Of a DNA stretch of 64,000 nucleotides, positions 118 to 11,379 are shown piece by piece. A program made the translations under genes and the position numbers. The DNA is taken from contig JAYZAL010000101.1 in assembly GCA_036339735.1 (NCBI GenBank), positions 8,537 to 72,536 on the forward strand, written 5' to 3'. This DNA comes from Candidatus Poribacteria bacterium (GTDB taxonomy: Bacteria > Poribacteria > WGA-4E > UBA9662). Each line of letters begins with the position of its first letter. Within the stretch, counting starts at the first letter, position 1. The notes below the pieces were generated by a model, which saw nothing but the letters and a program-made list of their open reading frames with translations, made no database searches and was not told the DNA's origin.

Positions 118-1008
118 ATGCAAATTGTAACCCAAGCTGAATTATCCAATAAAATGCCATCCTATCAAGGTAAGGTGCGGGATTTGTATGATTTAGGCGA
201 TCAATTATTAATCATTTCTACAGACCGGATTTCCGCTTACGATTTTGTTTTACCCAGTGGTATACCCCACAAAGGTCATGCCTTGAACAGTATGTCCGAG
301 TTCTGGTTTAAGGAAACCGAGTCAATTGTCAACAACCATCTCATTTCTGCGGACGTAAATGAATACCCTGGCTTATCTGATTCTGACCGTTCACTATTAG
401 ATGGCCGATCAATGCTGGTACGAAAGGCCAATCGAATCGATATTGAATGCGTGGTTCGAGGTTATATTGCTGGTTCTGCTTGGAATGAATACCAGAAAGA
501 TGGAACAGTTTGTGGTTCCAAACTACCCACGGGTTTAAAACAGTCAGATCGACTGCCCGAACTGATTTTCACACCGGCAACAAAAGCTGACCACGGGGAA
601 CACGATGAAAATATTTCCATACAGCAAATGACGGACGTCGTCGGCAAAGATCTAACAGACAGATTAATGGAGACTAGCTTTGCTTTATTTAGATTTGCCA
701 GTCAACATGCTGAAAGCGTGGGGCTAATTCTATGTGACACTAAATTCGAATTTGGTTTGGTTGGCGAAGAATTGGTTTTGATTGACGAAGTTTTTACACC
801 AGACTCTTCTAGGTTTTGGCCAAAAGACGATTACCAACCAGGCCGATCGCAAAGTAGCTTCGACAAGCAATATGTGCGAGATTACCTAGTAGAAATTGGA
901 TGGAACAAACAACCACCAGCACCGCAACTGTCATCTGAGGTGATTGAACAGACCAGCAGAAAATATTTAGAAGCTCATCGCCTGATTACCGGACGCTCCT
1001 TGGTTTAA
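118..1008 (+). CDS. purC: SAICAR synthase
   Basis: GKVRDLY, TDRISAYD, ECVVRGY, DTKFEFG and DEVFTPDSSRFW motifs. ATG at 118 follows an AAAGGA SD (ORF track starts at 85). Confidence 0.97.
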   Translation: MQIVTQAELSNKMPSYQGKVRDLYDLGDQLLIISTDRISAYDFVLPSGIPHKGHALNSMSEFWFKETESIVNNHLISADVNEYPGLSDSDRSLLDGRSMLVRKANRIDIECVVRGYIAGSAWNEYQKDGTVCGSKLPTGLKQSDRLPELIFTPATKADHGEHDENISIQQMTDVVGKDLTDRLMETSFALFRFASQHAESVGLILCDTKFEFGLVGEELVLIDEVFTPDSSRFWPKDDYQPGRSQSSFDKQYVRDYLVEIGWNKQPPAPQLSSEVIEQTSRKYLEAHRLITGRSLV

Positions 1009-1015
1009 TGCTGAC

Positions 1016-1741
1016 CTAGACCTTTTTTCGCCAAACGGCTTCAAAATTATCCCTAGGTTGAAACCCAAGCAGTCGTTTGGCTTTTTCGTTGGAAACCCAG
1101 TCGTGTGGGAGGTCGGCCACGATAAAAAAGCATTCACACCTTGAAGGCATGGCCTCAAGATCTACAGCTAAGGCACGACGAAACGATTCACCACAGTCAC
1201 GCCAACTGACAGTAAAAGGATGTAAGTCAGTACCTTGTCTCTGATCATCATGTTCAAGAAAAGTCAAAAATAACAAAGTTAGGACATGTAGTGGATAGTT
1301 AGCTGTGAAAACACGACAGATTTCTTGGCCTAGAGATTTAGTCAGTGCATAAAGATTTGTGCCAGGGTGAGGTGGAATGTCAGGGGTGATACCAAAATCG
1401 AAGTCTTCGTAGGTTTCGCCAGCCAAAGTAAAGTGTGGTCCTGTATTAATGATTCGATCAATACCTTGCTCAGCTGCCACCTGCATAGTATTGTAGGTGC
1501 CACGAGTACTAACATCGAAGGCTAGTTTCCGATCGTGCCTCAAAACTGACAAATTGATAATTGCATCCATGCCTTCAGCTGCTTTTCTGACTTGCTCGAT
1601 GTCGGCCACATCGACGACTCGGGTTTCATGTGGCGATTCGATTGGCGTGGTGTCTGTAATACGAAGGGTGTGTTCATTCTCAATCGCTTTGACCACATGT
1701 GGTCCCATGTATCCATTACCACCTAACAAAAGCACTTTCAT
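1016..1741 (-). CDS. NAD-dependent epimerase/dehydratase (extended SDR)
   Basis: N-terminal LLGGNGYMG Rossmann loop and YALTK catalytic YxxxK. Confidence 0.88.
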   Translation of the reverse strand: MKVLLLGGNGYMGPHVVKAIENEHTLRITDTTPIESPHETRVVDVADIEQVRKAAEGMDAIINLSVLRHDRKLAFDVSTRGTYNTMQVAAEQGIDRIINTGPHFTLAGETYEDFDFGITPDIPPHPGTNLYALTKSLGQEICRVFTANYPLHVLTLLFLTFLEHDDQRQGTDLHPFTVSWRDCGESFRRALAVDLEAMPSRCECFFIVADLPHDWVSNEKAKRLLGFQPRDNFEAVWRKKV

Positions 1742-1743
1742 TT

Positions 1744-2322
1744 TTAATCTCCCAGATGAATAATTTTCCAGTACTTGTCGTCAATAGCATCAGACACCGC
1801 AGTGGAAATCTCTTCTGTACTAACCTCACCTAGCCGCAAAATGGTGATTTTTATTAATCGCTCACGAGCAAACTCCTTGCAGATACACTCGCCCAGATAT
1901 GAGGCCAACAGGTCAGGAGCAGTACTTGGCTGCGGACGCCAGCGAGGGCCAATAGCCACATTTGGCCCAAGTCTGTCAAATAGCCTCAGTGTGCTAAGGA
2001 AGATAAAGTTACTGACACCAGCTTCGGCTGAAGCAGTCAATAGATTGTAAGTACATCGTGTTGAAAAATCTAGGAGTTGATTGGCCGAATCACTGATATC
2101 GTTCAGTGTTAGGCCGTTGGCTGAAGGCGGTCTTGCCAAATGTACAACCGAATCAACATGCTGAACCGGTAGTTGCGATTCATGGTCAAGGTTAGAACGA
2201 ATGAAATCAAAATCCGTTTGGACATCGACTATATCCGTCAACCGAATTTCGTGGTTGGCTGACAAACTCGCAGCTAACCTTCGGGCTAATTTAGTACTGG
2301 CAGATGTGATTAATAATTGCAT
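1744..2322 (-). CDS. Short degenerate SDR-like protein
   Basis: SDR-like scaffold (IRLTD, VVHLA, TYNLLTASAEAGV, ITILRLG) without a Gly-rich loop or YxxxK. Confidence 0.7.
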   Translation of the reverse strand: MQLLITSASTKLARRLAASLSANHEIRLTDIVDVQTDFDFIRSNLDHESQLPVQHVDSVVHLARPPSANGLTLNDISDSANQLLDFSTRCTYNLLTASAEAGVSNFIFLSTLRLFDRLGPNVAIGPRWRPQPSTAPDLLASYLGECICKEFARERLIKITILRLGEVSTEEISTAVSDAIDDKYWKIIHLGD

Positions 2323-2344
2323 TTGAATAACGTTGGCGTATAAG

Positions 2345-3340
2345 TTAAACAGGGAAATCTAGCTTCTGGTCAAAAAATACCCGACTAACCGAACGGTGCT
2401 TATGGATACGAAAGATTGCTTCAGCTAATAATGGGGCGATACTGAGGACCTTGACCCTACCGTTAATTTGTTTCTCAGCCGGAACAGGGATAGTGTTGGT
2501 CGTAACAATTTCTTGGATAGAAGGTCGGTCTAATAATTGACAAGCTTGGCCAGTTAGTACCGGGTGTGTAATAGCAATATGTACTGGGTTAGTGCCTGCC
2601 ACCACAAGTGCATCAGCGTGTTTATAAATGCTACCACCAGCAATCAAATCGTCAATCAAGATAGGGGTCTTACCTGATACATCGCCAACAATCTGGTTGA
2701 CTTCAACCGACCGACCGCCAATTCCGCTTCTTTGCTTATGCATGATAGCTAAAGGAGTATGGAGGATTCCAGCATACTTTTCTGCTAATTTGGCTCGGCC
2801 AACGTCTGTAGAAACGACGACCCCATCCTTGATTTTCTGCTCCTTTAGATAGGTGGAAAGGATTCCTAGTGCCGTTAGATGATCAAATGGGATATTAGAA
2901 AACCCCTGGATTTGCGTGGCGTGTAAATCGACTGAGATAATACGATCTGCACCAGCTGTAGTGAGTAGGTCAACCACCAATTTGGCCGTTATTGGCTCTC
3001 GCCCAGTAGATTTATGATCTTGCCTTGCGTAACCAAAATACGGGATCACTGCTGTGACTTGCCGAGCTGAAGCTCGACGTAATGCATCCAGCATAACTAG
3101 TAATTCCATCAAATTGTCATTGACAGGCTCACAGGTTGGCTGAATCACATAGACATCCGTCCCACGTACACTTTCCTCAATTTGAACATGGGTTTCACTG
3201 TCGGGAAAAGTTCGTATTTCAACTTGGCCTAGGCTAATACCTAAACAGTCAGAAATTTCTTTCCCTAATTCGGGGTTAGACCGGCATGTAAATAAGCGAA
3301 AATCGCTACCAACAGACTCCCCATCTCGAATTGACATCAT
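2345..3340 (-). CDS. prs: Ribose-phosphate pyrophosphokinase
   Basis: FPDSETHVQIEESVRG, NLMELL, PYFGYARQD and DLHATQIQGF. Confidence 0.95.
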   Translation of the reverse strand: MMSIRDGESVGSDFRLFTCRSNPELGKEISDCLGISLGQVEIRTFPDSETHVQIEESVRGTDVYVIQPTCEPVNDNLMELLVMLDALRRASARQVTAVIPYFGYARQDHKSTGREPITAKLVVDLLTTAGADRIISVDLHATQIQGFSNIPFDHLTALGILSTYLKEQKIKDGVVVSTDVGRAKLAEKYAGILHTPLAIMHKQRSGIGGRSVEVNQIVGDVSGKTPILIDDLIAGGSIYKHADALVVAGTNPVHIAITHPVLTGQACQLLDRPSIQEIVTTNTIPVPAEKQINGRVKVLSIAPLLAEAIFRIHKHRSVSRVFFDQKLDFPV

Positions 3341-3398: not shown

Positions 3399-6300
3399 TT
3401 AGGAACAACCGCTAGTTTCGCCACAATTTAGACACCGGTAACATGTACCGTTACGAACCATAATAGTACCACAACTGTGACAACTAGGCGCATCGGTCTG
3501 CATCTGGGCAATCTTCACTTCTTGCTCAATGCGTTCTTGCTTACTGCTTCCCAGTTCACCTGGTAATGGCCATTGATCTTGTTGGGGGAAATCGAGTTGT
3601 TCGACCTCATTACTAACTTCTACATTGTTAGTGATAAACTTTTGCTCCAGCCACCGAAAAACATAATCAATTACTGACTTAGCAATTGGAATATCCTTGT
3701 TATTGGTAAAACCGGCCGGTTCAAAACGAGAATGAGAGAATTTCTTTACCAGTGATTCTAGTGGGACACCATACTGCAAAGACATAGAGGTCATAGTAGC
3801 AATAGTATCCACCAATCCAGAAATAGCTGACCCTTCTTTAGACATGGTCAAGAAAACTTCGCCTGGTAGCCCATCTTCAAACATACCAACCGTCAAATAT
3901 CCTTCATGCCCAGCAATGCTAAACTTATGCGTGATCGACTGGCGCTCATCTGGCAAACGACGACGGCTGGGAGTCATCTCTTCTACTGCAGCCAACTCAA
4001 CTTCATCCTGTTCAGAGTCATTGGAGGTGTTCAATGGCTGGGACAGCTTTGATCCATCACGATAAATGGCCATTGCCTTCAGGCCCAACCGCCACGATTC
4101 GGTGTATAACCTTTCAATCTCTGCAACTGTAGATTCGTTAGGTAGGTTAATCGTTTTGGAAATAGCACCGGAAATAAAAGGCTGAGCCGCAGACATCATT
4201 TTAACATGTCCCAAGGGAGCGATAAAACGATTGCCATATTTTCCACATCGGTTGGCACAATCAAAGATCGGCAGGTGTTCTTCACGTAAGTATGGAGCAC
4301 CCTCTAGAGTCATCATCCCACAGATCACTTTGTTAGCTGATTCGATCTGATCGTTGGTAAAACCTAGATGATTTAATAAAGAGAATGTCGGTTGCTCACA
4401 CAAGTCTACTGCCCATCCTTTTCTTTTGGCTAAATCATCTCCAACTATGTGAAGGTTGATCGCATTAGATAACTCAAAAACAGAGGGCAAGACAGCTTCA
4501 ATTTTGCTGATTTCTTCGTCGGTCAACCCTTTTTCTTTCAAACTGATAGCATTGATTTCTGGGGCATTAAGCAAAGTGGCTGTGCCCTGGGCATAAGCTA
4601 CGATAGCTTCAATATTGGGCTGACTATATCCAAGAGCAGCTAGAGCCTCCGGTACAGAGTTATTGATGATTTTGAAATAACCACCCCCTGCCAGTTTTTT
4701 GAATTTAACCAGAGCGAAGTCAGGTTCTATCCCAGTAGTATCACAATCCATTAGTAGTCCAATTGTACCAGTGGGGGCCAAAACCGTGGCTTGAGCGTTT
4801 CGATAACCATGAACTTCCCCCGCTTCAACCACTTCATTCCATATTTGTTGTGCGGTATTGATCAAATCAGGTGGACAAAGATCGGGGTCAATTTGGTAAG
4901 TAGCAGCTCGGTGCTTATTCATCACCCTCAGCATAGGTTGACGATTCTTCTCATATCCAGAAAATGGACCTTTCACAGACGACATCTCCGCGGATGTCAG
5001 ATACGCTTCTCCGCATAAAATCGCGGTCAAGGCATTGCACCAGGCGATAGCAGTTTGGCTGTCGTAGGGCAATCCTTTAACCATCAATAGCGTACCCAAG
5101 TTTGCATAACCCAAACCTAATGGACGATAGTCGTGGCTATTCTGAGCAATGGATTTGGTCGGATAAGACGACAAATCAACTAATATCTCTTGGGCTACAA
5201 AGAAGATGCGACAGGCATGCCTGAATTTTTCAATTTCAAAGTCGCCTTCGGAATCCAAAAATTTCAGCAAGTTTATAGATGCTAAATTACATGCACTATC
5301 GTTTAAAAACATGTACTCAGAGCAAGGATTGCTACTGTAAATTCGGTCCGTACTAGAACAAGTATGCCAATCATTGATGGTTGTATCGAACTGCACACCA
5401 GGGTCTGCGCACTGCCAAGCAGCTTCAGCTACTTTCTGCATTAACTCTGAAGCTAAAAATTCCTCGTGGGGTTCTCCTGTTGTTCGCAGGCGAGTACACC
5501 ATTTTTCGTCGTTTAGATAGGCCTGCATGAATTCATTTGTTAAGCGAACAGAGTTGTTTGAATTTTGGCCCGAAACAGTCTTATAAGCCTCACCATTGAA
5601 ATCAGAAGAATAACCAGCGGCAATTAGCGCAGCGACTTTCTTTTCTTCTTTGGCTTTCCATTCAATGAAATCAACAATTTCAGGGTGATCCATATCTAGG
5701 CACACCATCTTTGCCGCACGTCGGGTTGTGCCTCCCGATTTAGTTGCTCCAGCAGCTCGATCGTAGACTTCTAAAAATGACATCAAACCACTACTAGTTC
5801 CACCACCCGAAAGTTTTTCTTGTCTGCCTCTGACTTTTGAAAAATTGCTACCAGTTCCTGATCCATACTTAAAGACCCGAGCTTCATTTTTGACTAAATC
5901 AAAAATCGACATCAGATCGTCATCAACTGATTGGATAAAGCATGCGCTACATTGTGGGTTCTCATAGTTGTTATCTGTCTGTACGATTTCTTGTTGGTCT
6001 CGATTCCAGTACCAATTCCCTTGCCCACCTTCAATCCCATATTGATGGTGAAGCCCGCAATTAAACCAAACTGGCGAGTTGAAAGCACCACGTTGAGTTA
6101 CTAGCATATAGGTCAATTCAGCCTCAAATCTGTCTGCATCTTCTACTGACGCAAAATATCCACCAAACTTTTCTCCAGCGTGTCGGATAGTATTGGCAAC
6201 TCGGTGTACGAGTTGTCGAATGCTGTCTTCGTGTCCTTTTTCTGGTACGCCGGCTTTACGCAAGTATTTGGAGGCTGCAATATCTAAAGCTAGTTGAGAC

Positions 6301-6527
6301 CATTCCTTCGGAACTTCAGCTCGGTCGAGATGAAAAATGACCTCTCCTTTTTCATCGTATATAGATGAACTGCGATATGTCCACTCGACCTGATCAAACG
6401 GGTGGGTGCCATTTTCAGTAAATACACGAATAAACTCAAGACCTAATGATGGGTCATTTTCACCAAGCCTTTTGCTAATTGTTTCATGGCTAGGTGCGGC
6501 TGGAATTGAGTGAGTTGAATTCGTCAT
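3399..6527 (-). CDS. nrdJ: Class II (B12-dependent) ribonucleotide reductase with C-terminal TSCPD and Zn-ribbon region
   Basis: NSPVWFN, PQCSACFI, NPCSEY, ACNLAS, APTGTI, QPFISGAISKTIN and C-terminal CxxC...CxxCG.TSGCS. Confidence 0.96.
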   Translation of the reverse strand: MTNSTHSIPAAPSHETISKRLGENDPSLGLEFIRVFTENGTHPFDQVEWTYRSSSIYDEKGEVIFHLDRAEVPKEWSQLALDIAASKYLRKAGVPEKGHEDSIRQLVHRVANTIRHAGEKFGGYFASVEDADRFEAELTYMLVTQRGAFNSPVWFNCGLHHQYGIEGGQGNWYWNRDQQEIVQTDNNYENPQCSACFIQSVDDDLMSIFDLVKNEARVFKYGSGTGSNFSKVRGRQEKLSGGGTSSGLMSFLEVYDRAAGATKSGGTTRRAAKMVCLDMDHPEIVDFIEWKAKEEKKVAALIAAGYSSDFNGEAYKTVSGQNSNNSVRLTNEFMQAYLNDEKWCTRLRTTGEPHEEFLASELMQKVAEAAWQCADPGVQFDTTINDWHTCSSTDRIYSSNPCSEYMFLNDSACNLASINLLKFLDSEGDFEIEKFRHACRIFFVAQEILVDLSSYPTKSIAQNSHDYRPLGLGYANLGTLLMVKGLPYDSQTAIAWCNALTAILCGEAYLTSAEMSSVKGPFSGYEKNRQPMLRVMNKHRAATYQIDPDLCPPDLINTAQQIWNEVVEAGEVHGYRNAQATVLAPTGTIGLLMDCDTTGIEPDFALVKFKKLAGGGYFKIINNSVPEALAALGYSQPNIEAIVAYAQGTATLLNAPEINAISLKEKGLTDEEISKIEAVLPSVFELSNAINLHIVGDDLAKRKGWAVDLCEQPTFSLLNHLGFTNDQIESANKVICGMMTLEGAPYLREEHLPIFDCANRCGKYGNRFIAPLGHVKMMSAAQPFISGAISKTINLPNESTVAEIERLYTESWRLGLKAMAIYRDGSKLSQPLNTSNDSEQDEVELAAVEEMTPSRRRLPDERQSITHKFSIAGHEGYLTVGMFEDGLPGEVFLTMSKEGSAISGLVDTIATMTSMSLQYGVPLESLVKKFSHSRFEPAGFTNNKDIPIAKSVIDYVFRWLEQKFITNNVEVSNEVEQLDFPQQDQWPLPGELGSSKQERIEQEVKIAQMQTDAPSCHSCGTIMVRNGTCYRCLNCGETSGCS

Positions 6528-6546
6528 AACGGTTCCTCGAGATTAT

Positions 6547-7371
6547 TTAATTTGCTTGGTTTTGATTTGTTTGCTTCGCTAGATTCTTTTGCTGATTTTT
6601 GACATAGACCAACCGCTTCCCATTGACTAGTGATGACTTGATTTTGCCCTGTGAGATATGTCGGCGAATTGTACGTTCTGACATGCCAAAAATGGACACC
6701 GCACCCTTCACATCAACCCATCCACCCTGTTTTTCGTCATTTTTAGGCGGTCTAATGTCATTGGCATAGACCAATCTCACACGATTCTCCAACCTAGAAC
6801 GAACTTTTCGCTGTGAAATATAACGTCTCAATGTACGCTCTGGCAGGCCAAAAGTGGCAACAGCTTCTTTAACTGAAAGCCAAGATGGGGTATCTTCAGA
6901 AGGACGATCAGCAAACTCACTAGCTGATGAAATCTGAAGGACTTCTTTTTGAAAATCATGGATGTCTTTGAACTCACGATAGACAGATGCGAAGCGAATG
7001 TAGGCAACATCATCCAAATTTTTCAGCAGGTTCATGACAACCTCACCAATAGTATGACTTTCCACCTCATTCTTACGCAGGGCAATCAATCGCTGCAATA
7101 CTTCGCCAACCAGATTGTCAATTTTGTCTTGCTCAATAGGTCGTTTTTCACAGGCTTTGCTCAGGCTTAGCAGCAACTTATGTCGGTCGAAAGATTCCTT
7201 CTGCCCATCCTTCTTGACTACGAATAAATCCAGCGTTTCTGATCTTTCGTATGTGGTAAAACGCTTACTGCACCCCAAACATTGTCGCCTTCGCCGGGTT
7301 GCATTCCCCCTATCGGTCGTACGCTTGTCAATTACCTTACTCTCTTTACTTTTGCAATAAGGACACTGCAC
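6547..7371 (-). CDS. nrdR: Transcriptional repressor NrdR with a C-terminal extension of two HTH repeats
   Basis: CPYC...RRRRQCxxC.KRFTTYE Zn ribbon, ATP cone (VVKKDG) and VAYIRFASVYREF, followed by ~125 extra residues. GTG start. Confidence 0.95.
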   Translation of the reverse strand: MQCPYCKSKESKVIDKRTTDRGNATRRRRQCLGCSKRFTTYERSETLDLFVVKKDGQKESFDRHKLLLSLSKACEKRPIEQDKIDNLVGEVLQRLIALRKNEVESHTIGEVVMNLLKNLDDVAYIRFASVYREFKDIHDFQKEVLQISSASEFADRPSEDTPSWLSVKEAVATFGLPERTLRRYISQRKVRSRLENRVRLVYANDIRPPKNDEKQGGWVDVKGAVSIFGMSERTIRRHISQGKIKSSLVNGKRLVYVKNQQKNLAKQTNQNQAN

Positions 7372-7416
7372 TGGTTACTCTTCCTGTGAAAAAACATTTT
7401 AGCGGCCAAGCCGACA

Positions 7417-7464
7417 TCTCAACATATTGTAGGGGTGGCAAGTGAATGGCCCAACATGGAGAGC
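7417..7464. promoter_or_regulatory. Tandem NrdR boxes
   Basis: tctCaAcATaTtGtag (7417-7432) matches every core position of acaCwAtATaTwGtg. A weaker copy gccCaAcATggaGagc starts 32 bp away (7449). Confidence 0.75.
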
Positions 7465-7476
7465 CTGCATGACCCT

Positions 7477-7505
7477 ATAATAAACCAATTGGTTGCACTT
7501 GTCAA
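7477..7505 (-). promoter_or_regulatory. sigma70-type promoter of the nrdR-nrdJ operon
   Basis: TTGACA-17 bp-TATTAT on the minus strand. Confidence 0.7.
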
Positions 7506-7553
7506 CCAACATGCGCAACAACAATTCACTAGTATATGGGGCATCAATCCCAC

Positions 7554-7582
7554 TTGACGACTGGATTTTCGGCTGATATCCT
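7554..7582 (+). promoter_or_regulatory. sigma70-type promoter of the S8 protease gene
   Basis: TTGACG-17 bp-TATCCT with TGn extension. Confidence 0.55.
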
Positions 7583-7590
7583 AACGAAAT

Positions 7591-10500
7591 ATGCGAATTT
7601 TTTTTATCATTTTTTTTTATTTTTTTGTTGGTATAAGTTGGAGTACCAATAAATCGCCTTCTAATCAATCTGTTTCGGCCGAAAGTACGAGCCAAACTAG
7701 TTCTCAGTTGATTGTTCGTTTATCTTCTCCTGCTGTGTTTCAGAAAGTCAAGCATCAACTTAGAGTTGACCATATTAAGCCTCTATTGCCCCAAATAAAA
7801 ACTAAGTTCCTTGCTGATCATCTCGGACTATCCCGTCTTTATCTACTCGAATTTTCCCAAAAGATAGATCTAACCCAAAAGTACTGGCAATGTAAGGGGC
7901 ATCCTCAGGTCGAGGCAGTCGCTTACAATTATATTCGGTTCACACAATCGATCGAACCTAATGATACTAGTTACAAAGACCAGTGGAATTTGGAGAAAAT
8001 TGCCATGAGAGAAGCATGGGAAATTGACCGTGGCAATTCTGATGTCATTATTGCAGTAATTGATACTGGTGTAGACTACACACATGAGGATTTAAAAAAA
8101 CAGATGTGGCGAAACAATCGAGAGATCGATGGTAACCAGATTGACGACGATAGCAACGGATATATTGACGATATGCTAGGTTGGGATTTCACCCAAAATG
8201 ATAATAAGCCTATGGATGAAACCGGACATGGCACTCATGTGGCTGGCATTATTGGTGCTGAAGTGGATAATCGAATTGGTATTGCCGGTGTAGCTTGGAA
8301 ATCTAGAATCATGGCTATTCGGGTAGGATCTTCTTCCTATTACGGTGGTGTGGGCATGCGCGATAGTAACTCTGCCGCTGGCATCATTTATGCCGCTGAT
8401 AATGGAGCAAAAGTGATTAACATGAGTTGGGGAAGCGATCGATTATCTTTTGTCATTCGTGATGCTTTAGCTTATGCTAGGGCTAGCGGAGTATTACTAG
8501 TGGCTGCTGCCGGTAATGATATGAAATCTGATGTTATTTACCCTGCCGGTTATCAGTCAGTTTTAGCAGTTGCCTCAGGCAACCAACAAAATGAGCGATT
8601 TTATCAGTCTAACTTCGGTTCCAGGGTTAATATCGTAGCTCCTGGTAATGATATTTTGAGTACCCATATACGAGACAATTATCGGCTACTATCCGGAACC
8701 TCAATGGCAGCACCACATGTAGCAGGTGTTGCTGCTTTAATGCTATCAAAGAGGCCGAATTTGACAGCCGAAGAGATTAGACAAATTTTGGTTTCATCAG
8801 CACAACCAATGCCTAAAAGTCCTGAATTTTCGGGAGCCGGTTACCTTTTGGCACCTGCGGCTCTACGGATGAGTATTAGTTTACAATCAAAAATTACATC
8901 ACCCATTACCGGTACTGGCAGTGATAAACAGATTGAAGTCAGAGGTTCTGCTGGTGGCTTTGGATTTCAAAAATGGCAATTACGGTACGGTCAATCGACG
9001 ACACCAAACGATTGGACGATAATCAAGGAAGACTATTTACCGACTGGGAAAGATCAAATTCTAGCTGTATGGCAAACTACTTTTTTGCCTGAAGGTAGTT
9101 ATACTCTTCAATTGGTTGTCAAAAATGTAGACAGTATACAGATCACAGATAATGTTGTTGTTCAAGTCGACCACTCACCACCAATTTTACAAAATTTGAC
9201 CCTTCAACACTGGTTAGCCGGCGATCGTTATGTACCGGTTGTATTTTGGTCTACCTTTGACATGACTATTAATGAACTCCATTGGAAGCCAATAGCTTCG
9301 AGCAATTGGCAGGATCGAGACGCTGAGGCTGCAGTTAGCCGAGAGCATATCTTTTGGTTACCTGATCTACCTGCTGGTGGTTACAAACTTTCTGCTAAAT
9401 CAACCAATCTGGTTGGTTTGACAACCGAACAACTGTTCAGTACTCAGATCAAAGACAGTCGAATTCCAACTTTTCAACTAGATCAATACACACTTGGCTT
9501 ACCACCACTTCATTTGGCTAACTCTAGTTCACCGATTGACTTCGATGGAGACGGACAAGTTGAGTTGGTTGGCTTGCCTTTAAGTGGGACGTTGACTAAA
9601 GGTGTCCAAATTTATGAGCGAAACAAGCGAGGTCTTTTCCCATTAAGACACACTATTCCAACCCGTTTTTGGCCAGCCTTTGTAGGCGATTTGAATCAAG
9701 ATCGCCAAATAGAAATTGTTGGCTACGATGATGATCAGGTGTTTGTTATGACTGGCGACCAAACATATCCTGATCAGAAGGTTTGGACTTCTGATATCAT
9801 TGAATTCGCTCAGGTATTTGACCTTGATCAGAATGGTCGTCCGGAAATTGTGGGGCCAAACAACTACAGCGGTCAGGTAATCGGATTTGAAAGTGGAGGC
9901 AATAATACTTTTGATCTAATCTTTGAAATCAACAACCCTAGCCAAGGTACCAACGTGATAAAACAGATTGCCGCCGGAGATCTTAACGGGGATGGGAAAA
10001 ATGAACTTGTGTTCGGCGACAGCGAGGGTGAGATCTTCGTCTATACAGATATGAACGGTCCAAACCATCGTTTGGTTTGGGAACATAATTTACCGATCCA
10101 AGATATTCGGGTGATAGTGGTTGGAGACATGACTGGAGACAAAATTGACGATTTCATTGTTGGAGGACAAACCTACCAGCCTGAACTACCGTCGATTGCT
10201 CGCCAATGGAAATTTTACGCTTTTACCTATCGATCACACAATAAGGGCTTTAGTCAAATCTGGTCTCAATCATTTGTTCCTTATACCGAACAACTTGCTA
10301 GTTTGAAGATTATTGATCTAAACCAAGACTCTGCAAATGAGTTGGTAGTTGCTATTTCGCCGCACGTATACATATACGACCAAAATTTCGAGCCGATTTG
10401 GACAAAACTTATTCATGAAACACCAAACATCTTAGCAACTAATTTTTCCGAAGATGGCCGGAAGGGAATTTATGTCAATCAGTCTCGACAGGCAGTAGCT

Positions 10501-11379
10501 TGGTTTTGGCCGAAAACTACTGATACCAACGTTTGGGGATTAACGGCCAAGACTTCGGATCCAACGCAACAACGAAAGCCGACAGTCGTTCAACTTAACT
10601 GGCAGTCTTCAGCTCAGAGATTTACTATCTATCGAGCAAAGGGAAAAGAGAGAGACTGGAAAGAGATCGGTACAAGTCAAACTAAGACCTTTAAGGATTT
10701 TGATTTTCAGACAGAATCAATCTATCGTTATACAGTATCCGTCAGCAATAGTGATCTTAGAAGTAATGAAGTTGAAGTTGTAATCAGAAGTCAATCTCAG
10801 TTAAAGACAGTTCAACCATTAGGTCAACATCAAATCTCTGTCCTGTTTGCTGATCGTTTGGACCTAAACTTATGGGAAGATCTCATTGGTCGTTCAATTT
10901 TCGATCCGACAAATTATCATTTGTCTCCAGCTAATGACTTGAAAATCAAACAGCAGCCAACTTCAGTTGTGTTAGACCAATCTGATCGACGGTTGTTATT
11001 AACCTTCTCACGCTTGGATTGGGAAGAGAATTATAGACTAGATTTATCGACTGGTGAGTATGCGGAATTTACTACGCCGCCAGATATCGGTCAACCGACT
11101 AACCTGCAACACTTAGTAGCATACCCCAATCCGGTTCGACCTAACGAAATGCATAAAGGTGCCGTTACATTCGCTAACCTACCTTCTGACAGTCAAATTC
11201 ACATCTATGACTTGTCCGGCACTCTAATCCAAACATTATCAATAGAACCTGAAGATCTGGGAGAAAAGCAATGGTACCTTCAAAATAATAGAGGTTTCGC
11301 CATTGCTAGTGGCCTTTACCTGTATTCAGTTCAATATAAGGATCAGAAAAAAGTTGGCAAAATTGCAGTAGTTAAATAA
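7591..11379 (+). CDS. Secreted S8 subtilase with FG-GAP-like repeats, Fn3-like domain and C-terminal FlgD-Ig/T9SS-CTD-like domain
   Basis: Signal peptide. Catalytic motifs VIDTG, HGTHVAG, AAGN and GTSMAAPHVAG. DFDGDG and DLNGDG repeats. C-terminal AYPNP...IYDLSG...ASGLYLY...GKIAVVK. Confidence 0.92.
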   Translation: MRIFFIIFFYFFVGISWSTNKSPSNQSVSAESTSQTSSQLIVRLSSPAVFQKVKHQLRVDHIKPLLPQIKTKFLADHLGLSRLYLLEFSQKIDLTQKYWQCKGHPQVEAVAYNYIRFTQSIEPNDTSYKDQWNLEKIAMREAWEIDRGNSDVIIAVIDTGVDYTHEDLKKQMWRNNREIDGNQIDDDSNGYIDDMLGWDFTQNDNKPMDETGHGTHVAGIIGAEVDNRIGIAGVAWKSRIMAIRVGSSSYYGGVGMRDSNSAAGIIYAADNGAKVINMSWGSDRLSFVIRDALAYARASGVLLVAAAGNDMKSDVIYPAGYQSVLAVASGNQQNERFYQSNFGSRVNIVAPGNDILSTHIRDNYRLLSGTSMAAPHVAGVAALMLSKRPNLTAEEIRQILVSSAQPMPKSPEFSGAGYLLAPAALRMSISLQSKITSPITGTGSDKQIEVRGSAGGFGFQKWQLRYGQSTTPNDWTIIKEDYLPTGKDQILAVWQTTFLPEGSYTLQLVVKNVDSIQITDNVVVQVDHSPPILQNLTLQHWLAGDRYVPVVFWSTFDMTINELHWKPIASSNWQDRDAEAAVSREHIFWLPDLPAGGYKLSAKSTNLVGLTTEQLFSTQIKDSRIPTFQLDQYTLGLPPLHLANSSSPIDFDGDGQVELVGLPLSGTLTKGVQIYERNKRGLFPLRHTIPTRFWPAFVGDLNQDRQIEIVGYDDDQVFVMTGDQTYPDQKVWTSDIIEFAQVFDLDQNGRPEIVGPNNYSGQVIGFESGGNNTFDLIFEINNPSQGTNVIKQIAAGDLNGDGKNELVFGDSEGEIFVYTDMNGPNHRLVWEHNLPIQDIRVIVVGDMTGDKIDDFIVGGQTYQPELPSIARQWKFYAFTYRSHNKGFSQIWSQSFVPYTEQLASLKIIDLNQDSANELVVAISPHVYIYDQNFEPIWTKLIHETPNILATNFSEDGRKGIYVNQSRQAVAWFWPKTTDTNVWGLTAKTSDPTQQRKPTVVQLNWQSSAQRFTIYRAKGKERDWKEIGTSQTKTFKDFDFQTESIYRYTVSVSNSDLRSNEVEVVIRSQSQLKTVQPLGQHQISVLFADRLDLNLWEDLIGRSIFDPTNYHLSPANDLKIKQQPTSVVLDQSDRRLLLTFSRLDWEENYRLDLSTGEYAEFTTPPDIGQPTNLQHLVAYPNPVRPNEMHKGAVTFANLPSDSQIHIYDLSGTLIQTLSIEPEDLGEKQWYLQNNRGFAIASGLYLYSVQYKDQKKVGKIAVVK

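Follow-up and report, generated by a model that had tools for sequence, protein, structure and literature searches.

NrdR followed by two tandem HTH_17 domains: a new architecture in a well-known repressor family, confined to two genera of marine Poribacteria

This report concerns a single gene, here called nrdR-2xHTH, in a stretch of 64,000 nucleotides (nt) from a Candidatus Poribacteria bacterium (GenBank assembly GCA_036339735.1, contig JAYZAL010000101.1, positions 8,537 to 72,536 of the forward strand); this whole stretch is referred to as the window, and coordinates without further label are positions in it. The gene lies at 6547..7371 on the minus strand, with a GTG start codon at 7371 and its stop codon at 6547–6549 (from the list of open reading frames, ORFs, and the translation), and encodes a protein of 274 amino acids (aa): a complete copy of the repressor NrdR followed by two tandem helix–turn–helix (HTH) domains, predicted to be winged helices. 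For this well-known family of repressors the domain architecture is new, and it is real, conserved and under selection. The reading that we favour, with a probability of roughly 0.6, is that the added tail provides avidity or bridging at or near the repressor’s own operator, coupled to the oligomeric state of the protein.

The NrdR part is complete. Its zinc ribbon (aa 1–42; 7246..7371, minus strand) is recognised as PF22811 (Zn_ribbon_NrdR; 2.1e-18) and carries C3, C6, C31 and C34 as well as D15 and R17, and the ATP-cone (aa 50–136; 6964..7224, minus strand) is recognised as PF03477 (2.5e-21); in the structure model, the last NrdR helix extends to about aa 150 (nt 6922). The NCBIfam equivalog model for NrdR, TIGR00244, scores 179.6 bits over aa 1–145 against a cut-off of 124.65, and solved NrdR chains align to aa 2–148 with an E-value of 4e-37 (9fzf; also 9fvr, 9fxk, 9gex and 7p37). 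In an alignment of 47 NrdR sequences all 43 invariant columns are kept, including the four cysteines, D15 and R17. From the operon, the single RNR detected and the pair of NrdR boxes described below, NrdR function looks intact. In a passage of PMC9110341, NrdR is described as a two-domain protein of about 140–220 residues; with 274 aa and two further folded domains, the protein analysed here exceeds that usual size. The gene has AGGAAG 9–16 nt 5' of its GTG codon, relatives start with ATG at the identical position, and the reading frame is unbroken in three species-level genomes.

A complete NrdR followed in one continuous ORF by two repeats of about 40 aa, with a period of 54 aa, was the core of the original prediction, and it is borne out: the repeats noted there lie at aa 163–201 and 217–255, and its coordinates, 6547–6882, correspond to aa 164–274 plus the stop codon. 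When aa 159–205 are aligned with aa 213–259, 24 of the 47 positions are identical without a single gap (E 8e-18). The tail begins with a variable, probably disordered linker of about 12 residues (aa 151–162; 6886..6921, minus strand, as are all segments of the tail), modelled with a predicted local distance difference test score (pLDDT) below 50 at aa 151–161. It is followed by the first HTH domain (HTH_17/MerR-like; aa 163–202; 6766..6885), which also gives weak MerR and MerR_1 matches at aa 166–202, by a conserved inter-domain linker, ANDIRPPKNDEKQG (about aa 203–216; 6724..6765), whose centre is again modelled at a pLDDT below 50, and by the second HTH domain (HTH_17; aa 217–258; 6598..6723), with its best HTH_17 stretch at aa 219–254. 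A variable polar tail (aa 259–274; 6550..6597), differing in length among homologues, ends the protein.

That the repeats are winged helices of the HTH_17 or excisionase (Xis) kind, as had also been proposed, agrees with both the profiles and the models. The Pfam family HTH_17 (PF12728) scores 39.4 bits over two stretches, against a cut-off of 27; TIGR01764 (‘excise’) reaches 19 against a cut-off of 28.8 and thus stays below its threshold. The full-length model (mean pLDDT 77, predicted template modelling score, pTM, 0.40) shows the NrdR fold and then a strand–helix–helix–hairpin unit twice; a model of the C-terminal part alone, built from an alignment with 22 relatives, gives a pLDDT of 92–94 across both domains and a pTM of 0.42. 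When Foldseek matches were re-ranked by VIA-align, the best was the Pukovnik excisionase 4j2n (Z 6.7; root-mean-square deviation, rmsd, 2.5 A over 53 residues), followed by the Streptomyces protein BldC (6ama, Z 6.0; 6amk, Z 5.6), the MerR-like N-domain 3qao (Z 5.6), lambda Xis (2ief, Z 5.4) and Tn916 Xis (1y6u, Z 5.2), with many MerR-family N-domains at lower ranks. Sequence profiles likewise match 4j2n (E 3.4e-4) and BldC (E 0.025). An ESM Atlas feature search returned only generic HTH_17 clusters, at 0.84–0.87, below the level at which the tool itself counts a match as more than a lead. With moderate confidence, each HTH domain may be assigned to the Xis/BldC/MerR type of winged helix. The basic residues that HTH_17 proteins typically have in the recognition helix and the wing are preserved in both domains, and counting by eye from the sequence gives net charges of about +7 (aa 163–201) and +6 (aa 217–255). 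The protein does not fit the MerR family proper, in which a coiled-coil dimerisation helix and an effector-binding domain come after the winged helix: in the models, nothing more than a short linker or tail follows each of the two.

The junction between the two halves is authentic. An assembly chimera – the doubt that the original prediction had raised against itself – is dispelled by contigs from four independent public sequencing runs that bridge the region near 6900: two from DNA runs (X7, covering 6300–7394, and X1, covering 6838–7666) and two from RNA-library runs (X15, 6300–7011, and X16, 6843–7144). The RNA-library contigs span the 5' end of the downstream gene nrdJ, the tail and the ATP-cone, and such contigs do not by themselves prove transcription or a single transcript. 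The stretch in question, or part of it, is present in 20 of the 24 listed runs, which come from 15 studies, and all runs with a label are marine or seawater metagenomes.

Evolutionary constraint was estimated from the proportions of nonsynonymous (pN) and synonymous (pS) differences, obtained by Nei–Gojobori counting with our own script, between the genome that contains the window (G000) and the fused genome of a second genus (G058). The NrdR part gives pN 0.122 and pS 0.76, the first HTH domain 0.150 and 0.79, and the second 0.158 and 0.52. The inter-domain linker (aa 202–216) has the lowest pN of the C-terminal half, 0.069 (pS 0.39), falling to zero in the comparison with G059, a member of the same genus as G000. 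The first linker (aa 150–162; pN 0.60, pS 0.76) and the polar tail (pN 0.37, pS 0.42) lie at the other end of the range. Between G000 and G059, the corresponding rate ratio dN/dS is 0.04 for the first HTH domain and 0.10 for the second. These low values indicate that both winged helices are constrained as strongly as NrdR itself and are under purifying selection, and that the segment joining them to NrdR, like the polar tail, is free to vary.

The architecture recurs in related genomes, as the original prediction had suggested should be looked for, and it does so within a very narrow range. A search of 176 genomes of the phylum Poribacteria with the protein matched 57, of which 56 gave an NrdR-type match; in three of these the match reaches the end of the tail, namely in G000 and G059, which belong to one genus, and in G058, from a second genus of the same family. 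A further genome of the first genus, G060, has a locus that ends at aa 139, where its contig ends. ORFs were read in 39 of the 56 loci: 3 are fused, 1 is cut and 35 end at 149–162 aa; in the remaining 17 genomes the match stops by residue 156. The third genus of the family is unfused in both genomes examined (loci L036 and L037), with an NrdR of 150 aa and the same flanking peptidase gene. Longer open frames in five other genomes (G037, G010, G012, G011 and G002) were considered and rejected as upstream read-through, the NrdR ORFs there being 150–162 aa long. In another family of the same order (f4), none of the 112 genomes matched the NrdR query, no family-profile search having been made; all 40 genomes of its two sister families did match. 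From this distribution, the fusion is a single gain, specific to this lineage.

Protein collections give the same picture. Among 120 listed relatives of the whole protein, five (P0002–P0006, 73–98% identical) join HTH_17 to the NrdR domains, the other 115 consisting of ribbon and cone only, and the same five are the sole matches to aa 150–274 among 56 candidates. The full-length architecture fills three 90% clusters with 131, 45 and 7 members (183 in total), drawn from many contigs; names on 3 of 87 cluster members read ‘transcriptional repressor NrdR’ (two) and ‘hypothetical protein’ (one). A phmmer search with aa 155–274 against 1.84 billion representative proteins yielded 38 matches at E <= 0.001, and revealed no further NrdR fusion. 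Two of the matches, P0003 and the fragment P0122, are members of the NrdR group described here; the NrdR ribbon and ATP-cone are absent from the 23 of the 38 that were scanned with Pfam, and the other 14, P0003 aside, are proteins of 69–169 aa that an alignment shows as plain HTH proteins. HTH_17 was found in none of 59 relatives of 481–2000 aa (E <= 0.001). The architecture is thus conserved, and narrowly confined to two sister genera of uncultured marine Poribacteria.

Nor does it seem to have been described before. The original prediction knew of no such description, and this holds for the literature searched as well as for protein collections outside the clade. Full-text searches found no account of an NrdR with HTH domains, PMC9110341, PMC12051234 and PMC12176259 being covered by passage; the supplementary alignment of PMC9110341, which lay outside the search, might show long NrdRs. 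The excisionase that appears in a passage of PMC4989314 is Euo, a separate protein.

The genomic setting is that of an ordinary nrdR. Downstream lies nrdJ (3399..6527, minus strand), encoding a class II (B12-dependent) ribonucleotide reductase (RNR) of 1042 aa (PF02867, 7.6e-131; PF08471, 7.3e-24), whose start is 19 nt 3' of the nrdR stop. It is the sole PF02867 locus in G000, and neither the NRDD nor the R2 families gave a match there, in a genome that is 92% complete. In all fused genomes in which the flank is present, nrdR adjoins nrdJ. A putative operon promoter (7477..7505, minus strand) consists of TTGACA (7505–7500), a 17-nt spacer and TATTAT (7482–7477); both hexamers are kept in all four fused loci and also in non-fused relatives.

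NrdR is characterised by paired boxes about three helical turns apart ahead of RNR genes, and candidate boxes were scored here against the consensus of the literature. Box 1 (GCTCTCCATGTTGGGC; 7449..7464, minus strand) is a weak match at 12 of 19 and lies 32 base pairs (bp) upstream of box 2 (CTACAATATGTTGAGA; 7417..7432, minus strand), which scores 15 of 19, stands at –61 from the start codon and is kept in the four fused loci. An equivalent of box 1 is present in all 39 loci compared, and the pair is 31–33 bp apart in every one of them, 33 bp occurring only in L043 (17-bp spacer); all four fused loci have spacers of 15–16 bp. According to a passage of PMC12051234, box spacers of 14–17 bp bind tightly. 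Promoter and boxes are also the main conserved blocks among the four fused loci. The conservation of the promoter and the box pair therefore indicates that the classical NrdR autoregulatory circuit is intact and, as far as can be read from the sequence, retained on the nrdR–nrdJ operon.

Comparison with known systems helps to define what is new. Canonical NrdR (Escherichia coli 9fzf and 9fvr, Streptomyces coelicolor 7p37) is alike in its zinc ribbon and ATP-cone, in all invariant residues and, by the evidence of the promoter, in probable autoregulation from paired boxes 31–32 bp apart upstream of an RNR operon; the difference lies in the extension, here two folded HTH_17 domains, whereas the other 35 complete Poribacteria NrdR ORFs that were read all end at 149–162 aa. 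BldC (6ama, 6amk) has in common a MerR/Xis-like winged helix pared down to the minimum, with neither a coiled coil nor an effector domain. It is reported, in a passage of PMC5859096, to form head-to-tail multimers on direct repeats, an arrangement that a covalent tandem pair would mimic. However, BldC is a free protein of 68 residues, whereas here two copies are fused together and to a nucleotide sensor, and no direct-repeat target was seen at the promoter when the three fused lineages were compared. TraN of plasmid pIP501 – which, according to a passage of PMC10877727, combines two excisionase/MerR-like DNA-binding halves in one chain and, as a monomer, represses from a 34-bp site – is the top Foldseek match of the two-domain model (4p0y, 4p0z, 4pm3, with the DNA complex in 6G1T; E 0.02), though it lacks a sensor domain. 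We do not count this match as a sign of a shared domain arrangement: the superposition is poor (rmsd about 16 A), as the arrangement here is not predicted. Identity is 11–14%.

Excisionases (Pukovnik Xis, lambda Xis and Tn916 Xis) provide the best single-domain matches in both fold and sequence, yet nrdR-2xHTH, whose immediate neighbours were checked, has no integrase or mobile-element context; its locus is a conserved chromosomal arrangement of peptidase, nrdR and nrdJ, with a synteny common to non-fused relatives. Another natural fusion on the NrdR side is that of NrdR to NrdD, seen in 33 of the 59 long relatives. It has the same ribbon and cone as its N-terminal module, but these are joined to the class III reductase itself and not to a DNA-binding domain. 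Such NrdR–NRDD fusions occur among P0159–P0208, are about 800–880 aa long and come in some cases from archaea (Micrarchaeia and the Asgard group). Other partners among the long relatives (FtsZ, SHMT and RibD domains) were for the most part seen once each, and may stem from gene calls that ran adjacent genes together.

The history of the tail can be approached through its stand-alone relatives. The closest of these, to which the second repeat is the nearer of the two, are small proteins with an N-terminal HTH_17 domain, some with a coiled-coil-like tail: P0125 (146 aa) is 53% identical to repeat 2 and has such a tail, and P0124 (71 aa, 49%) lacks it. In G000, the sole paralogue of the tail’s HTH domains is a protein of 161 aa encoded at C62:7408-7890 (plus strand), with 32–33% identity; its N-terminal HTH is followed by a long Gln/Glu-rich, coiled-coil-like region, and no mobile-element genes are found among the nearby ORFs listed. 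Tandem HTH_17 arrays also occur elsewhere, some proteins carrying 5–8 copies. The tail is likely to have arisen by the capture of one winged helix of the stand-alone type and a duplication.

Two other proteins were noted in passing. P0133 (281 aa), from the representative library, begins with an unrelated domain of about 170 aa that has no Pfam match at E <= 0.001; two HTH_17 domains come after it, which gives the same layout of sensor-like domain and tandem winged HTH as in nrdR-2xHTH. P0007, an NrdR relative of 223 aa, contains an internal repeat from the second CxxC through the early ATP-cone, which is either a true duplication or an artefact of assembly (its contig is 56.8 kb).

How might such a protein work? 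In the scheme that we propose, a working NrdR gained a second nucleic-acid-binding module in the last ancestor shared by the two Poribacteria genera. This module consists of two tandem Xis/BldC/MerR-type winged helices, tethered flexibly behind the final helix of the ATP-cone. The NrdR part would most likely behave as in other bacteria, with dATP and ATP together driving the formation of a tetramer whose zinc-ribbon pairs would bind both NrdR boxes a short way 3' of the operon’s –10 hexamer, so that the only RNR detected and the repressor’s own gene would be repressed. With ATP only, NrdR forms higher oligomers that do not bind DNA; by likeness to other NrdR proteins, ATP alone is assumed here, too, to yield oligomers that would release the DNA. 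Each tetramer would display eight strongly basic winged helices on tethers of about 12 residues, which could touch the DNA flanking the boxes, the DNA that separates them, or other sites as well, and such contacts would add avidity or bridging set by the nucleotide-controlled oligomeric state. By analogy with BldC and TraN, the two covalently linked HTH domains would be expected to lie at neighbouring sites on a single face of the DNA. Nucleotide sensing, DNA binding by the tail and the target of that binding are what we infer in this scheme. The analysis supports the structural part of the original prediction; its functional part, that the second module could loop or bridge DNA or extend the regulon, stands as a proposal.

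Several observations weigh against the favoured reading of a tail that reinforces binding at or near the operator. The relative orientation of the two HTH domains is not predicted, with a linker centre below 50 in pLDDT and a pTM of 0.40–0.42. The structural Z scores of 5.2–6.7 are moderate – the tool itself calls values below 8 common – and the fold assignment for this reason rests equally on Pfam and on the 4j2n profile match. No DNA target of the tail emerged: the 260-nt promoter regions of the three fused lineages have in common no repeated 6-, 7- or 8-mer, whether the copies are sought on a single strand or on both, though with three lineages the comparison has little power; beyond the boxes and the two promoters, of the operon and of the divergent neighbour, conservation is limited to a short stretch on the 3' side of box 1. 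Nor do the box scores suggest that the tail makes up for weak boxes: fused pairs score 27–28 and non-fused pairs 25–35, ranges that overlap, and since the fused loci form one clade, this idea was dropped. Finally, some proteins of the winged-helix fold bind proteins rather than DNA, as does CbpM in 3ucs (Z 4.6).

Two further results belong to the search for a target. A conserved upstream block, CAGTCGTCAAG, was entertained as an extra site and set aside, as it reads as the –35 element of the divergent peptidase gene (TTGACG-N17-TATCCT); its core is also found in the non-fused sister genus. A scan of G000 for box pairs with a generic consensus gave 16 pairs, where three shuffles gave 15, 27 and 32, and is uninformative on further targets because the true operator (12+15) itself falls under the threshold of 29. 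Rfam yielded nothing at gathering scores in the whole window.

These findings have to be set against three other explanations of the tail. The one that comes closest to the favoured reading, though we consider it unlikely, is a wider regulon, in which the HTH pair has sites of its own elsewhere and the dATP/ATP-controlled oligomer regulates non-RNR genes or acts as a nucleoid-associated protein. It would fit the behaviour of the closest folds, BldC and Xis, which bind many or repeated sites as multimers (so a passage of PMC5859096), the lack of any extra conserved site at the gene’s own promoter, and the nature of the closest stand-alone relatives as small HTH and coiled-coil proteins, one of them encoded in G000 itself; but no candidate site or regulon was found, the box-pair scan was uninformative, and the tight linkage to nrdJ in every fused genome with the flank present speaks against it. 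Similarly unlikely is the broader proposition that the tail turns NrdR into an architectural or global regulator sensing the dNTP pool, whose winged helices bind beyond the boxes and bridge or loop DNA or control further genes; if it were true, chromosome organisation or other pathways would follow the ATP/dATP ratio.

Less probable again is a role in protein interaction or self-association, in which the tail would make no contact with DNA but would alter the NrdR oligomers or bring in a partner. Winged helices of this class can bind proteins, as CbpM does with CbpA and as TorI-type excisionases can with their protein partners, and the inter-domain linker, although modelled as disordered, shows the highest conservation of any segment, a pattern often seen in interaction motifs. 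Against this stand the basic recognition-helix and wing residues and the high positive charge kept in both domains, and a neighbourhood in which only nrdJ and the divergent peptidase are conserved, the latter also in non-fused relatives. Least credible by far is that the fusion is an assembly or gene-calling chimera, or a functionless excisionase recently captured from a mobile element and now decaying. HTH_17 is indeed common in mobile elements and the clade is narrow, but the junction is spanned by X7, X1 and the two RNA-library contigs, the frame is common to three species-level genomes and three protein clusters, both domains bear the marks of purifying selection while synonymous sites are near saturation, and the gene is flanked by nrdJ and the peptidase, with no integrase. 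The fusion gene is, therefore, no assembly chimera.

The remaining observations concern the neighbours. The divergent gene (7591–11379, plus strand; 1262 aa) encodes a secreted peptidase-like protein that we take, from our own reading of its sequence, to be of the S8 type, and it is kept beside nrdR across the family at 45–92% identity. Its putative promoter ends about 8 nt before the annotated ATG, so that its true start may differ or its mRNA may be nearly leaderless. An A-rich tract at 7596–7630 (on the coding strand, a poly-Phe/Ile signal-peptide start) draws many short unrelated contigs, with a summed depth of 575–3138 in the two DNA runs against 6–19 around it; this peak is a low-complexity mapping artefact and no signal of copy number. 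At L036 and L037, the reductase downstream of nrdR is a different one, 24–25% identical to this nrdJ over the core and with an ATP-cone-like N-terminus; the RNR gene was thus exchanged within the family, nrdR and the peptidase staying put.

The finding has limited practical reach, as the variant occurs in no more than two genera, both of uncultured marine bacteria, and its public records are labelled NrdR or hypothetical protein. It shows that the NrdR ribbon and cone, otherwise fused mainly to the class III reductase in the databases searched, form a sensor module that can be carried into other proteins. Nucleotide-dependent oligomerisation switches NrdR, a repressor found in many bacteria, and a second module tethered to it is a natural experiment on affinity, on the tolerance of box spacing and on the range of its targets.

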